Source: an uncultured Bacilli bacterium
GTDB lineage: Bacteria > Bacillota_I > Bacilli_A > RF39 > UBA660
Assembly: GCA_948629335.1 (NCBI GenBank)
Contig: CAPHZB010000001.1
Span: 1 to 59,027 of the forward strand
Direction: 5' to 3'
Length of the DNA stretch: 59,027 nt
The notes under the pieces are model-generated. The model saw only the letters and a program-made list of their open reading frames with translations, was not told the DNA's origin and ran no database searches. How positions within the stretch are numbered: position 1 is the stretch's first letter; every line of letters starts with the position of its first letter. A program made the translations under genes and the position numbers. Shown here in pieces: positions 2,591 through 17,383 of this stretch.

Positions 2591-2915
2591 TATCCTTCCA
2601 TATTAAATTATAATATTTTAAGAATAAATCTGTTTTTTTCTTTTCCATAGCGGACAAATCTTTATCAAAATCAAGTACGTAAATATTTTTAATATGACTT
2701 GGTCTTTTTGATAAAACAATAATAGTATCGGACATTGTTAAAGCTTCTTCCAAATTATGTGTGACCATAATGGCACTTTTTCCTTCCATTCTAAGAATTT
2801 GTAAAACATCTTCTGAAACATTTAAACGCGTGACATAATCGAGAGCACTAAATGGTTCATCTAAAAGAAGAATATCTGGTTTTAAAGCAAGTGTTCGAAT
2901 TAAAGCTACTCTTTG
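2574..2915 (-). pseudogene. C-terminal half of the split ABC transporter ATP-binding gene
   Basis: Encodes [26 protein letters not shown] (end of signature, Walker B, D-loop) and an H-loop (MVTHN). Its stop overlaps the permease start. The upstream part of the track ORF (2916..3032) is element sequence, not the true N-terminus. Confidence 0.85.
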
Positions 2916-3075
2916 AATGTAGTGAAGACACGCATCATTTCCTTTGCTTATTTTATAAAGAATTGCAAGAGTGTAATGGATAGCCCTTATTTTTTCAAGG
3001 GGCTGTCGTGAAATTAAATAATTTTGCTTCAAGTCTTTTTTGTATATTTTAATTCCTCTATTTTCAAAAGGAAAT

Positions 3076-3125
3076 AAAAAAAGGGCTATCGTAAATTAGT
3101 ATTTTGGCTAATTTTGCGACAGCCC
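3076..3125 (-). terminator. Possible intrinsic terminator downstream of the Bro-N gene
   Basis: On the minus strand, a 9-bp stem GGGCUGUCG/CGAUAGCCC (one G:U pair) is followed by a 7-nt U run. The loop is large (25 nt), which lowers confidence. Confidence 0.35.
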
Positions 3126-3244
3126 ATTAGAAATACAATGGCTCTTTGACAACTTAATATTTCTAGAATTTTTAAATAACTTACACACTTAGATTGCCTA
3201 ACCCTAAATTTTTCTTTGAATTTATCTTATTTTTATTTACAGAG

Positions 3245-4102
3245 CTATTTATTTTCTATTTGTTTACTTTCAGCAATATATTGATAGTTAAGCGCATTTT
3301 CATTGCTAATTACTGATTTACCTAAATTCTTTTCAATATCATCTCTAGCAACCTTTGCAGCATGTCCACCCATTTTAGCAATTTTTTTATTTTGCTTCAA
3401 TCCATAGGGCTTATGTTCTTTAGCAAGTTCACGGGTAGCGATTTCTCCTAAATCAGTAAGTGCTACTTCTATATCAGACATATTATCTCTTAAAGACTCT
3501 TTCCTTATACCTTTATAAACCTTATATTCACTTGCTTTCATACCAGACCATTCTTTATATATTTCATTAGTAAGTATTCCATATTCATAGTCTTCCCGAA
3601 TACCTCCTTCTTTCCATATATCTGTAAGTTTATTTCTATCTAGTATTCCTTTTAATCTAGCTTCAATCCATTTATCAGAATATCCTCTTTTTCGATAATA
3701 GCTAATAGCTCTTTTAATTGCAATTTCAGGATCAAATACTTCATCAATTCTTTCGCTACCTAAATTAGCCAACCAAACTTTAAATGGTTCGGCTTTAGGC
3801 GAAGGAACAGATTCAATTAGCCTTAAAATTCCTTTAGTATCTAGTGTATCTGTTTCTCGCATTTTTCCATCCTGAGCTTTCATTTTCAACTGTACACATT
3901 TTGTGGACAGTTCACTGTTCTCCTCATCAGTCATTCTTTTTTTTAACATATTCCAATAATTTCTTGGATTATTACTATCTGTTAATGCACCAATAACATC
4001 AACTACGCTAAAATAATATTCTTCTTTTTCACTGTCCCAAATACTTCTAATTTCATTGCCTTCAAATAGATTTGAAATTGTTTCTAGCTTTTCTTGCTTC
4101 AT
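3245..4102 (-). CDS. Bro-N domain protein, DinD-like (DNA-damage-inducible protein D / antirepressor-like)
   Basis: The N-terminus (FEGNEIRSIWDSEKEEYYFSVVDVIGALTDS...NYW) has a Bro-N pattern. The C-terminal half resembles E. coli DinD in architecture (...LTDLGE.ATRELA...GGHAAKVARDDIEKNLGKSV). Confidence 0.65.
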   Translation of the reverse strand: MKQEKLETISNLFEGNEIRSIWDSEKEEYYFSVVDVIGALTDSNNPRNYWNMLKKRMTDEENSELSTKCVQLKMKAQDGKMRETDTLDTKGILRLIESVPSPKAEPFKVWLANLGSERIDEVFDPEIAIKRAISYYRKRGYSDKWIEARLKGILDRNKLTDIWKEGGIREDYEYGILTNEIYKEWSGMKASEYKVYKGIRKESLRDNMSDIEVALTDLGEIATRELAKEHKPYGLKQNKKIAKMGGHAAKVARDDIEKNLGKSVISNENALNYQYIAESKQIENK

Positions 4103-4214
4103 CTTTTATCCCAACCTTTACTTTTGTATTATGTATATAAGTAGAAGGAAAATATTATCCCTCTACTTATATTATTACGAAAAACTTTATGATTCCCTTC
4201 TTTTCTTGAAAATT

Positions 4215-15059: not shown

Positions 15060-16761
15060 AAAGTATAAAAAAGCAAAAGAACTTGCTGATAAAATTGATA
15101 ATGATATTGTAGAAATATTTAAGAATGGTTGCAATTTTAAAGTTGAAGCAGGTGCTGGTTCTGGAAAAACCTATTCTTTAATGAAAGTATTATCATTTAT
15201 TAAAGAAAACTATACTTCTGATTATTTAAAAAAAGGTCAAAAAATAGCATGCATAACTTACACAAATGCGGCTGTAAATGTCATTAAAGAAAGATTAGAA
15301 GATGAATCTTTCATTGTCCCTTGTACAATTCATTCTTTCGCTTGGGATGTTATAAAAAAATATCAAAAGGAAATAATCAAGTTTATTATAGAAAATAATA
15401 TGTTACCTAAAGATTTTGATAAAGAGAAGGATACCATAAAGGAAGTAGTCTATGATTTAGGGGTTAAATATTATGATGATGGAACTTTACACCTATTTCA
15501 TGATGATGTAATTAAACTTTTTTCTCATATGCTAGATTTTAATAAGTTTAGAACTACGCTTGCCTCTCAATATCCGGTTATTTTTATTGATGAATATCAA
15601 GATTCTAATAAAGATATATCTATTAAATTTATTAAGTATTTTATTGATGAAAAACATATTCCTAGTATTCAGTTTGGTTTTTTCGGTGACTCATGGCAAA
15701 CTATATATAAAACAAATAATGCAATTGGAGTTATTGAAAATGATAATATTACTAACATAAATAAAACTGTTAATTTTAGAAGTTGTCCTGAAATAATTCA
15801 ATGCTTAAATAAGATTAGACCTGATTTAAAACAAGAGTCGCCATTTGAAGATGGTGACGGAATAGCTAAAGTAGTTCATTGTAATGACTATAATGGAACT
15901 AGAAGGAAGGATAGATATTTTGTTGGGGATTTACCAGTAGAAGAAATTAGACAAAGATTAAATAATATTATTAAAACCTTTGATGATAGTTCACATCTAA
16001 AAGTATTAATGTTGACACATAAGATTTTAGCCAATCAACAAGATTATAGTAATATATATGACAGTTTTGGTAGTAGTTTTAAAGATGGTGATGATAAGTT
16101 AATAAATTATATAGCTAATGTGTTAGAGCCTACCATAAGTTCTTTATCAAAAAATGATGTAAAAGGGTTATATGACGCACTAGGTACATCAAGACCACCA
16201 ATTATATCTCAAAAGCACAAATTGATGTGGAAAAAATTAAATGATAAAATTCAAGCTAATAAGGATTCTACATTACTTGAAATTTTGAAAATTATTTATG
16301 AAAGTAAAATAGTGCCAATGTCCGATGATGTAGTAAATATTTATGAAAATATGATTAATAATCCAGAAGATAATTATAATGATAAAGTTACCTACGAACA
16401 TATTGCAAATATAAAATATCTTGAATTTGAAAGAGCAGTATCTTTTTTGAAACCGGATTCATTCTTTTCAACCGATCATGGTGTAAAAGGAGAAGAATAT
16501 GATGATGTTATTTTTGTTATTGGTAAAGGTTGGAATTTATATGACTTTGAAAATGTTTTAGTAATGGATGAGGCTACAAGAAATCAAAAATTAGATACTT
16601 ATGAAAGAAATCGCAATTTATTCTATGTTGGATGTTCTAGACCTAGAAAAAAATTGATTCTTTTGATAACCTGTGAGCTGAACGATGATTTTTATAATTA
16701 TTTGGCAGATATTTTTGGGAAGACTAATATAGTAGCATATAACGAATACATTAGTACATAA
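15049..16761 (+). CDS. gajB: UvrD/PcrA-like SF1 helicase, GajB-like
   Basis: GAGSGKTY Walker A, FIDEYQDS motif II, HGVKGEEYDDV and LFYVGCSRPRKKL late helicase motifs. The start overlaps the gajA stop by about 8-11 nt. Confidence 0.8.
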   Translation: MMNEKYKKAKELADKIDNDIVEIFKNGCNFKVEAGAGSGKTYSLMKVLSFIKENYTSDYLKKGQKIACITYTNAAVNVIKERLEDESFIVPCTIHSFAWDVIKKYQKEIIKFIIENNMLPKDFDKEKDTIKEVVYDLGVKYYDDGTLHLFHDDVIKLFSHMLDFNKFRTTLASQYPVIFIDEYQDSNKDISIKFIKYFIDEKHIPSIQFGFFGDSWQTIYKTNNAIGVIENDNITNINKTVNFRSCPEIIQCLNKIRPDLKQESPFEDGDGIAKVVHCNDYNGTRRKDRYFVGDLPVEEIRQRLNNIIKTFDDSSHLKVLMLTHKILANQQDYSNIYDSFGSSFKDGDDKLINYIANVLEPTISSLSKNDVKGLYDALGTSRPPIISQKHKLMWKKLNDKIQANKDSTLLEILKIIYESKIVPMSDDVVNIYENMINNPEDNYNDKVTYEHIANIKYLEFERAVSFLKPDSFFSTDHGVKGEEYDDVIFVIGKGWNLYDFENVLVMDEATRNQKLDTYERNRNLFYVGCSRPRKKLILLITCELNDDFYNYLADIFGKTNIVAYNEYIST

Positions 16762-16879
16762 TTTAGAATTTATTCAAATACATAATTATATGTATGACGC
16801 AATGACATATTGAATGAAAGTAGACCACTCAATTAATAGTGTCATAGTGTCTTTGATTTTAAAATATAAGATATAAAAA

Positions 16880-16918
16880 ATACCCTAATAGCCACCATGC
16901 TACTAGGGTATTATTTTG
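16880..16918 (+). terminator. Intrinsic terminator after the helicase gene
   Basis: A 12-bp stem ATACCCTAATAG/CTACTAGGGTAT (one mismatch) with an 8-nt loop, followed by TTATTTT. Confidence 0.55.
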
Positions 16919-16963
16919 ATTATAAGTCTCTTACTTAACTATTACCTTGTGTCTACACAATAT

Positions 16964-17383
16964 TCATCCAACTCTCTGTCGCATGCCTCCAGATAGATTT
17001 TTTGGATAACTATACATAAAATCCTTTAATCCATATTTTTCTAAAAGTGAAATTACATAATCCTTATTTTCTTTGGTTAAAGTGTGATTAATCTCTAATC
17101 CTAGTAAACAGTTATCTAAAATGGTTCTAAATTCAAATAGGCAATCATCTTGTAACATATATCCAAAGGTAACGGAATCTTCCTTTATAATAGAACCATC
17201 ACTTTGTTTTAAACTGCCTGCTAAAATAGATAAAATAGTTGATTTTCCACATCCTGATGGACCAACAATAGATACAAATTCATTTTCCTTTACGTCGTAT
17301 GAAAAATCAGAAACGGCCAGCGTTTCGGATTTTTTTGTATGATAGATTTTTTTTAAATCTCTAATTTTTAAGATACTGCTCAT
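16964..17383 (-). pseudogene. N-terminal half of the split ABC transporter ATP-binding gene
   Basis: GPSGCGKST Walker A and a Q-loop. It ends ...[10 protein letters not shown], inside the ABC signature, at the element junction. Its ATG overlaps the SBP stop (ATGA). Confidence 0.85.

Follow-up and report, generated by a model that had tools for sequence, protein, structure and literature searches.

Integrative and mobilisable elements (IMEs) of Firmicutes that use a serine integrase typically integrate in genes and disrupt them, and they carry an outward-facing integrase gene at one end (PMC5357655, PMC5704250). Those described at rumA, traG, maff2 and snf2 targets (Coluzzi 2017, PMC5357655; Guedon 2017, PMC5704250) combine site-specific, disruptive in-gene insertion with very short direct repeats, a MobV-type relaxase, no type IV secretion system, tandem accretion and variable cargo that includes restriction-modification (R-M) systems. 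Here we analyse a 59,027-nucleotide stretch of DNA from an uncultured Bacilli bacterium (contig CAPHZB010000001.1, positions 1 to 59,027; hereafter the window) and find that a 14-kb serine-integrase island sits exactly in the signature-motif codons of the ATPase gene of an ATP-binding cassette (ABC) importer. As a family, the island and its relatives resemble the Firmicutes IMEs in all of these respects, but their target is the signature-motif DNA of a chromosomal ABC-importer ATPase, their hosts are uncultured, reduced-genome gut Bacilli, and the window copy lacks an intact relaxase, carries Gabija and Type III R-M systems, and encodes an integrase at most 37% identical to annotated phage and plasmid records. 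We put the probability that the island is an integrated member of a site-specific IME family of uncultured gut Bacilli at roughly 85%, and the best reading of the window copy is a relaxase-decayed, defence-loaded member of that family. Elements of this kind are known; in a limited literature search, neither the target nor the host clade nor the resolved attachment (att) system turned up as previously described, and a limited full-text search found no paper naming an ABC ATPase as the target of such an element.

The interrupted operon adjoins rimP-nusA-infB, and the target gene encodes the ATPase of a NitT/TauT-type importer. An earlier reading of the window, made from its letters without database searches (the sequence-only reading), had proposed that a serine-recombinase element splits this gene, and the open reading frames (ORFs) and sequences that it gave for both junctions agree with ours. 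On re-reading, ACTCT is present at both (2908-2912 and 16971-16975), and deletion of 2913..16975 (14,063 bp), which joins 2912 to 16976, produces an uninterrupted 248-aa ABC ATPase as seamlessly as had been claimed. The rejoined protein comprises one complete ABC_tran domain (PF00005, 1.3e-28, Pfam) with Walker A (GPSGCGKS), LSGG, Walker B and H-loop motifs. The alignment of the halves to intact homologues that had been proposed as a check places the C-half colinear with P0001-P0004, and in a protein search with the rejoined ATPase P0001 is identical over 248 aa (100%) and three other full-length homologues are 92%, 91% and 87% identical. The N-half ORF, which contains Walker A (GPSGCGKST), reads V-G-stop into the element arm past R137. 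The C-half calls for a correction: the first 40 codons of the ORF at 2574..3032 come from the element, and the true C-half begins at 2912. An in-frame start for the C-half is rejected, as the frame upstream offers neither a plausible start codon nor a ribosome-binding site, and a GTG within the arm belongs to another frame. The element itself is 14,063 bp long, comprising window positions 2910-16970 and one copy of the AC crossover dinucleotide, and its G+C content is 22-27% vs 29-36% for the flanks. The integrase and Bro-N genes point the same way as the operon, whose antisense strand carries the other cargo.

Both states exist, since near-identical strains carry the empty and the occupied allele. 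Contig L001 (Logan, SRR33949423), which encodes P0001, is a precise empty site in a near-identical strain: its positions 1-1373 match window 18343-16971 at 100%, its positions 1369-4228 match window 2912-53 at 99.5%, and ACTCT, 5 bp, is common to the two alignment blocks. The occupied junction recurs at 100% identity in L087 (DRR775148), L088 (ERR3199679) and L089 (ERR3199547), and its occurrence in independent samples rules out an assembly artefact. Exact-protein look-ups of the N-half and of the helix-turn-helix (HTH) protein of the island brought up other contigs with the occupied allele; the same look-ups gave no exact record for the integrase (with two alternative starts) or the Bro-N protein. 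At least 75 distinct clusters of truncated, 139-142-aa ATPases occur in public protein sets; they are N-halves of genes that this element family has split, and their routine annotation is as short ABC proteins. Many ‘truncated ABC ATPase’ calls in metagenomes are split genes and not pseudogenes. The list from the N-half protein search does not include the intact, 100%-identical P0001 and is thus a biased sample, and it was used qualitatively only and not for occupancy.

The split recurs in other species. A scan for integrase relatives in one genome per species returned 124, of which the best 80 (67-91% identity) were kept, and almost all of their hosts are uncultured gut Bacilli or ‘Tenericutes’ metagenome-assembled genomes (MAGs), some of them closed genomes of 1.3-1.5 Mb. 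The relatives share one locus order, in which the integrase gene, often a Bro-N gene, and a conserved arm are followed by the C-half of the orthologous ATPase from V138, with the N-half (to R137) 2.8 to >10 kb upstream beside the other arm. At 57 right and 36 left junctions the break in the ATPase falls at one and the same codon, R137|V138, despite an identity of only 45-65% between these ATPases and that of the window. On the gene strand the right-end consensus is AAAAGTGTCTTCACTACATTCAAAGA-GT (57 junctions) and the left-end consensus is GT-TGGATGAATATAGTATAGACAC (36 junctions), from which we obtain an attP consensus of ~50 bp, AAAAGTGTCTTCACTACATTCAAAGA-GT-TGGATGAATATAGTATAGACAC, and an attB consensus, TTATCTGGTGGTATGAGACAAAGA-GT-TGCTTTAATTAGAACACTTGCT. 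The corresponding reconstructed junctions on the window + strand are AATTAAAGCTACTCTCTGTCGCATGCC for attB and CAATATTCATCCAACTCTTTGAATGTAGTG for attP. A position weight matrix (PWM) for the arms, built from related elements, has only two matches on both strands of the 59-kb window, and these are the two boundaries; it has no match in five empty-site loci. Together, the specificity of the arm PWM, the empty site in L001 and the recurring occupied junction make the observation more than chance.

The crossover can be placed to within two base pairs. In the 33 complete elements, attL and attR have 2-14 bp in common, and the intersection of these shared stretches is exactly GT. The inverted arms are separated by a 10-nt spacer with GT at its midpoint, the centre of the attP dyad. 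The GT-only intersection and its position at the dyad centre indicate a 2-bp crossover (AC on the window + strand), and this pattern is the signature of serine-integrase strand exchange. The earlier proposal of ACTCT as a shared core stands insofar as all five base pairs are present at both junctions, but the functional crossover is the 2-bp AC and the other three bases are incidental. The imperfect inverted repeat that had been described between 16949-16966 and the reverse complement of 2914-2931 is indeed identical at 15 of 18 positions. With a 2-bp non-palindromic centre and imperfect inverted-repeat attP arms that are distinct from attB, the sites have the form of large serine recombinase (LSR) att sites. 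The result is a resolved natural integrase system with a 2-bp crossover, consensus attP and attB, 33 natural attP variants and ~60 attB contexts.

All 27 of the target ATPases that can be fully reconstructed (those that are untruncated) are intact ORFs with Walker A, LSGG, Walker B and H-loop, and these intact halves fit recent insertion and selection through excision alike. In L006 the right arm is followed by GC and not GT (4843-4844), with A138 in place of V138; if real, the mismatch with attL would block re-excision there. attP-like junctions (right arm, GT, left arm) also occur in chromosomal arrays, at L050 12870-12915, L076 313-358, L084 3557-3602 and L086 979-1024, and in L050 the ATPase halves are separated by a tandem of two different elements. 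At L017 1334-1413, a left arm, ~12 bp and a degenerate right arm precede the left arm of a full element, which looks like a ~58-bp, cargo-less miniature ‘ghost’ element beside the N-half.

The divergence of the integrases is decoupled from that of the host ATPases, which indicates that the element moves between species: mean pairwise identity is 75.6% for the integrases vs 58.7% for the ATPases (Spearman 0.19), and in L040 and L041 the integrases are 97.4% identical while the host ATPases are 57.9% identical. Because the target is DNA that encodes a motif, the landing site stays conserved between hosts with ATPases of only 45-65% identity. Targeting the DNA of an invariant protein motif is a route to a broad host range, with occasional jumps into a paralogous ABC gene. 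Such a jump is seen in L020 (13056-13440), where the element of an 84%-identical integrase occupies the equivalent codon of a paralogous ABC-2-type ATPase (VALISALAHEPKILIMDEPF...); the same MAG (RGIG4316) also has a canonical insertion, L017, and only ~10 bp of the attB right half are common to the two sites. One contig, L007 (CAOJZZ010000041.1), is itself as long as our element, 14,063 bp; the match in length is a coincidence, since BLAST shows different cargo and shared modules that are only 82-93% identical.

The 542-aa integrase has the domains of an LSR (PF00239, 5.9e-19; PF07508, 1.4e-25; PF13408, 7.5e-11), and its N-terminal YLRLS motif holds the expected serine. Its longest ORF extends to 5843, a correction to the coordinate given earlier. 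Over 96% of its length the integrase is ~31% identical to TndX of Tn5397. The PDB entries matched by its N-terminal domain are TnpX and 3G13, the latter a recombinase of a C. difficile conjugative transposon, and there are weak matches to CcrB and CcrC. The likeness to TnpX and TndX (Tn4451, Tn5397) extends to a marginal C-terminal DUF4368 and to small elements that hold little besides the recombinase, which are compatible with excision independent of a recombination directionality factor (RDF). DUF4368 has been associated with multi-targeting TndX-like LSRs and reported in only 0.73% of site-specific LSRs (Durrant 2022, PMC10083194). The multi-targeting clade uses many sites set mainly by the dinucleotide, whereas here the target is one codon of one orthologous gene: 57 right junctions lie at V138, one is the paralogue case L020, and only L018 and L036 are non-ABC. 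The present family appears to be one of the exceptions, site-specific in spite of its DUF4368. Such a recombinase, with its resolved att sites, is of use in studying how LSR specificity and directionality are set and in building integrase toolkits.

No candidate for a conserved small RDF accompanies the integrase in all 33 complete elements. The smallest relatives (2.8-3.2 kb) have little beyond the integrase, and with a TnpX/TndX-like enzyme excision may need no dedicated directionality factor. A conserved 131-aa ORF lies just inside the left arm in 10 of the 33 complete elements (L009 2301-2696, L013 376-771, L062 3203-3643 and seven more); it is co-directional with the host operon, has no NCBIfam match, is absent from the window element, and is a candidate regulator or directionality factor. 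Another comparison is with SCCmec and its Ccr recombinases in staphylococci, likewise LSR-driven, non-conjugative, non-phage islands with a fixed site, variable cargo and tandem arrays. The staphylococcal islands, unlike the present one, do not inactivate their target gene, rlmH, since they insert at its 3′ end, and often use a CcrA/CcrB pair, while here a single recombinase splits a gene in its middle.

The cargo that the sequence-only reading had listed, namely a serine recombinase, a Bro-N gene, a decayed relaxase, Type III R-M and Gabija, is borne out by Pfam and PADLOC (Table 1), as is its statement that the window element has no phage structural genes (Pfam). GajA and GajB, the two components of Gabija, are both present and neighbouring, with a 35-nt gene overlap, and the Type III system is likewise represented by a full-length Mod, with an EcoP15I-type C-terminus, and a full-length Res in adjacent, overlapping genes. 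The 122-aa protein beside them has no match in Pfam, PADLOC or NCBIfam. Compared with the MobV of L017, the MobV pseudogene keeps residues 58-223 (frameshifted) and 463-486, and the N-terminus and residues 224-462 are gone. The description of the island as formerly mobilisable agrees with this frameshifted and internally deleted window MobV and with the intact MobV genes of four relatives (L007, L013, L017 and L026). That of a defence island suits the window copy but not the family, the cargo of which is mostly non-defence. Similarly, the window island shares with Gabija and Type III R-M islands on other mobile elements complete gene pairs clustered with a candidate defence gene (PDC-S13), but here defence is the cargo of this one copy, whereas P-type ATPases, regulators and RhuM/Fic proteins prevail in the family.

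Table 1. Features of the interrupted importer operon and of the inserted element, in window coordinates
Feature	Position	Strand	Basis
Importer permease, downstream of split ATPase	1952..2590	-	NCBIfam SsuC/TauC-like; Pfam BPD_transp_1 on orthologues
ATPase C-half, V138 to stop; Walker B, D-loop, H-loop	2574..2912	-	Translation; without own start codon
Crossover dinucleotide, C-half junction	AC 2908..2909	.	attL/attR intersection; empty-site overlap
Element arm at C-half (family ‘R arm’)	2910..2931	.	Reverse complement GTGTCTTCACTACATTCAAAGA; PWM 37.0; same as family consensus
Bro-N protein, PADLOC candidate PDC-S13, variable slot between integrase and arm	3245..4102	-	Pfam Bro-N 2.7e-12; PDC-S13 3.8e-115
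Large serine recombinase, at element end nearest C-half	4215..5843	-	Pfam Resolvase, Recombinase, Zn_ribbon_recom, DUF4368
MobV (Mob_Pre) relaxase pseudogene	6252..6848	-	tblastn with 486-aa MobV of L017; Pfam Mob_Pre on ORF 6395-6703
XRE-type HTH regulator, divergent from mob/int genes	7193..7714	+	Pfam HTH_3 4.7e-16; weak PADLOC control-protein match; 97% copy in L007
122-aa protein, travels with HTH gene and R-M module	7727..8095	+	59% relative beside HTH and Res remnant in L032
Type III methyltransferase Mod	8092..10026	+	PADLOC MTase_III 1.8e-171; Pfam N6_N4_Mtase and T3RM_EcoP15I_C
Type III restriction subunit Res	10001..12979	+	PADLOC REase_III 1.8e-243; Pfam ResIII and RE_endonuc
GajA, ATPase and OLD-type TOPRIM nuclease (Gabija)	13035..15059	+	PADLOC 2.5e-183, full length; Pfam AAA_15 and OLD-like_TOPRIM
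GajB, UvrD-like helicase (Gabija)	15025..16761	+	PADLOC 2.2e-175, full length; Pfam UvrD-helicase
Element arm at N-half (family ‘L arm’)	16949..16970	.	Reverse complement TGGATGAATATTGTGTAGACAC; PWM score 34.1; family consensus
Crossover dinucleotide, N-half junction	AC 16971..16972 (GT on gene strand)	.	attL/attR identity intersection, 33 elements; centre of attP dyad
ATPase N-half	ORF 16964..17383; host residues 1-137 = 17383..16973	-	Translation; identical 139-aa product in other samples
Substrate-binding protein, NMT1/SsuA family, first operon gene	17380..18369	-	NCBIfam SsuA_fam 9.6e-17; Pfam NMT1 on L002 orthologue

The 33 complete elements are 2.8-14.1 kb long, and the integrase is their sole universal gene. 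Bro-N is present in 17 of them, and the family cargo forms 95 protein clusters. By protein family, the cargo consists most often of P-type ATPases (11 proteins), HTH regulators, RhuM/Fic proteins (PDC-S23, PDC-S05), MobV (5) and DnaB/AAA_25-like proteins. The 25 commonest cargo families include no phage structural ones, and type IV secretion families are likewise absent from the top of the list. We are dealing with a widespread, previously unannotated mobile family in uncultured, reduced-genome gut Bacilli that carries metal-efflux pumps, toxins and, in the case of the window copy, Gabija and Type III R-M across species.

In the mechanism that we propose, the TndX-like LSR would recombine the ~50-bp attP with an attB formed by the signature-motif coding DNA of the NitT/TauT-type importer ATPase, with strand exchange at the central GT between R137 and V138. 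Integration would truncate the ATPase two codons past the junction and leave the Walker B/H-loop half without a start codon. Because the N-half is truncated and the startless C-half lies 14 kb from the operon promoter, behind genes that are mostly antisense, a resident element presumably keeps the importer off, and precise excision would restore the ATPase gene. The ancestral module would consist of a MobV relaxase, then the integrase, then a variable slot (Bro-N or RhuM/Fic), the remainder being exchangeable cargo; the window copy would have lost the relaxase and gained Type III R-M, Gabija and PDC-S13. The window island has its own integration/excision module and defined att boundaries, and it is probably still able to excise and integrate. 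As for a relaxase of its own, intact MobV is found in the four relatives named above and the window copy has a pseudogene only; having lost the relaxase, the window island cannot promote its own conjugative mobilisation.

Several observations weigh against this account. Of the two junctions that had been suggested for a search, the empty attB allele exists (L001), but no excised circle of the element was seen: a degenerate attP pattern has no match in IMG/VR, and in JGI metagenomes it matches only L086 (1,055 bp), an uninformative attP-like junction without context. No origin of transfer was identified. The DUF4368 match of the integrase is marginal (PF14287, 8.1e-06; 26.4 bits vs a 25-bit cut-off). 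Integrase activity, the direction of the event (insertion or excision) and the loss of transporter function are inferred. In two relatives the right arm abuts a different ORF, that of a 166-aa membrane/pilin-like, non-ABC protein at its 3′ end (L018 6433-6950) and a 172-aa ORF near RmuC-, DedA- and AspRS-like genes (L036 12774-13270), and these are either off-target insertions or rearrangements. In L039 (5804-6240) the right arm is joined to a reverse-complemented N-half, ...CAAAGA-GT-ACGTTGTCTCAT. Site specificity or stability is therefore not absolute. In L056 (12719-18393) the N-half and arm are inverted and lie downstream of the permease; L039 and L056 could reflect inverted insertion despite the non-palindromic GT, chromosomal inversion or MAG misassembly.

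Of the other explanations, one takes the element as a switch of the ‘active lysogeny’ type without sporulation, in which excision on operon transcription or nutrient scarcity turns the importer on in a sub-population, an idea that has been proposed for serine-integrase IMEs (PMC5357655). From its position after the N-half arm and its direction, the 131-aa ORF of 10 of the 33 relatives would be under the transporter promoter. In addition, none of the interrupted genes has decayed, and both alleles coexist in near-identical strains. However, the 131-aa ORF is absent from the window element and its function is not established, recent and frequent horizontal insertion equally predicts intact targets, and neither a riboswitch (Rfam scan) nor a regulator was detected upstream of the operon, so we regard such a switch as unlikely here. 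Also unlikely is a broader version, in which excision would be coupled to operon transcription (in the relatives via the 131-aa ORF) or to sporulation and would restore the importer on demand, and in which the same ATPase gene would be a landing pad for several apparently distinct elements at Walker B/D-loop and H-loop codons, only one other recombinase having been seen.

The island could instead be an immobilised fossil, a single insertion that can no longer be excised and that has left the ATPase dead in this lineage. The decayed relaxase, the failure to detect a circular form in IMG/VR or the JGI metagenomes, and the GC centre adjacent to the arm in L006, which would block excision there, are in line with this. 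Set against them, the integrase ORF is full length, both arms have top scores with the family PWM (34.1 and 37.0), both AC dinucleotides are intact, both ATPase halves are undamaged, and the flanks of the empty allele are 100% and 99.5% identical, which indicates that the insertion or excision event was very recent. We consider a fossil very unlikely and an IME family member that probably retains excision the better description of the window island.

The sequence-only reading had raised conditional restoration of the transporter gene, by analogy with skin/SpoIVCA and SPbeta/SprA, which are excised developmentally in spore formers. Under this view the island would leave the interrupted gene in the mother cell during sporulation, as with skin/SpoIVCA, SPbeta/SprA-SprB or gin, for which there is precedent (PMC4191935, PMC5595907). 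Like skin in sigK, SPbeta in spsM and gin in gerE, the window island is an LSR-driven element within a coding sequence, from which precise excision reconstitutes the gene, in a host with sporulation-related genes. The SpoIIIAH-like, GerM-like and GerE-like genes that had been pointed out are present on the contig and form a cluster on the - strand (55971..57815) with GerM-like (Germane) at 55971-56921, an 83-aa GerE-like LuxR HTH protein at 56972-57223 and SpoIIIAH-like at 57324-57815; together they make the host plausibly a spore former. That all reconstructible targets are intact would be expected if restoration were selected. No link between the island and sporulation emerges, though: the target is a nutrient-importer ATPase and no known sporulation gene, no conserved small RDF is found alongside the integrase, and the relatives carry mobilisation genes and spread horizontally. 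The decoupling of integrase phylogeny from host speaks against a long-resident, domesticated element of the skin or gin type and is compatible with a still-mobile one of the SPbeta type. A consensus promoter scan in this AT-rich DNA found 39 sites vs 34 expected from shuffling, i.e. no excess, and as the promoter and terminator scan is at shuffled expectation we draw no inference from it. A developmentally regulated element that restores the importer in the mother cell only is accordingly highly improbable.

That the island is a prophage remnant or phage satellite and not a conjugatively mobilised element is the least credible alternative and is rejected, since, although phages often encode Bro-N proteins and XRE repressors, and distant integrase relatives (<=33% identity) occur in small human-faecal ‘Bacteriophage sp.’ contigs, neither the window element nor the family cargo census, in its 25 most frequent families, contains capsid, tail, terminase, lysis or packaging genes, the attP pattern is absent from IMG/VR and relatives have a MobV relaxase.

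The same ATPase gene and operon are interrupted or flanked by other insertions. A second, unrelated serine recombinase of 461 aa (best NCBIfam matches CcrB and XisF) is encoded at 543..1928 (+), 24 bp past the 3′ end of the permease gene and convergent with it. Orthologues (56-99%) occupy the same position in L001-L005, L013, L051, L076, L078, L082 and L083, with differing genes behind them, and the recombinase probably marks another site-specific element beside the operon. In five species the C-half is split again just after the H-loop (VTHDL-x-E|A), at L049 4423-10148, L058 6189-11915 and L070 7352-10539 and in L055 and L016. The H-loop-site element ends in the inverted repeat CTTGAGTTCTA, and the L049 copy encodes a 364-aa serine recombinase and sortase, VWA and NAGPA proteins; public truncated ATPases of 195-224 aa have several different tails at the H-loop motif. 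In several lineages the ATPase is also cut directly after Walker B (L064 from ~8200 onward, L006 from ~4900 onward; P0152, P0154, P0231 and P0235), where the inserted DNA begins ...ATATTGTTAGTAC. The L064 insert at this site exceeds 9 kb and includes a PG_binding (endolysin-like) protein, which suggests that it may be a prophage. In the 227-aa P0166, the first 157 residues are those of the family ATPase to LLLDEP and are followed by a different ABC ATPase (VSGVDKKG...ILVSHDFDA...); this protein could be a hybrid that arose when elements residing in two ABC genes recombined with each other, or else a chimera of the assembly.

Further from the operon, the window differs from the 85-88% identical contigs L002 and L004 in ~2.8 kb of extra DNA at 25521..28328, which contains the gene for an 824-aa coiled-coil-rich protein without a Pfam or NCBIfam match (25742..28216), and its positions 22590-24710 are likewise poorly conserved.

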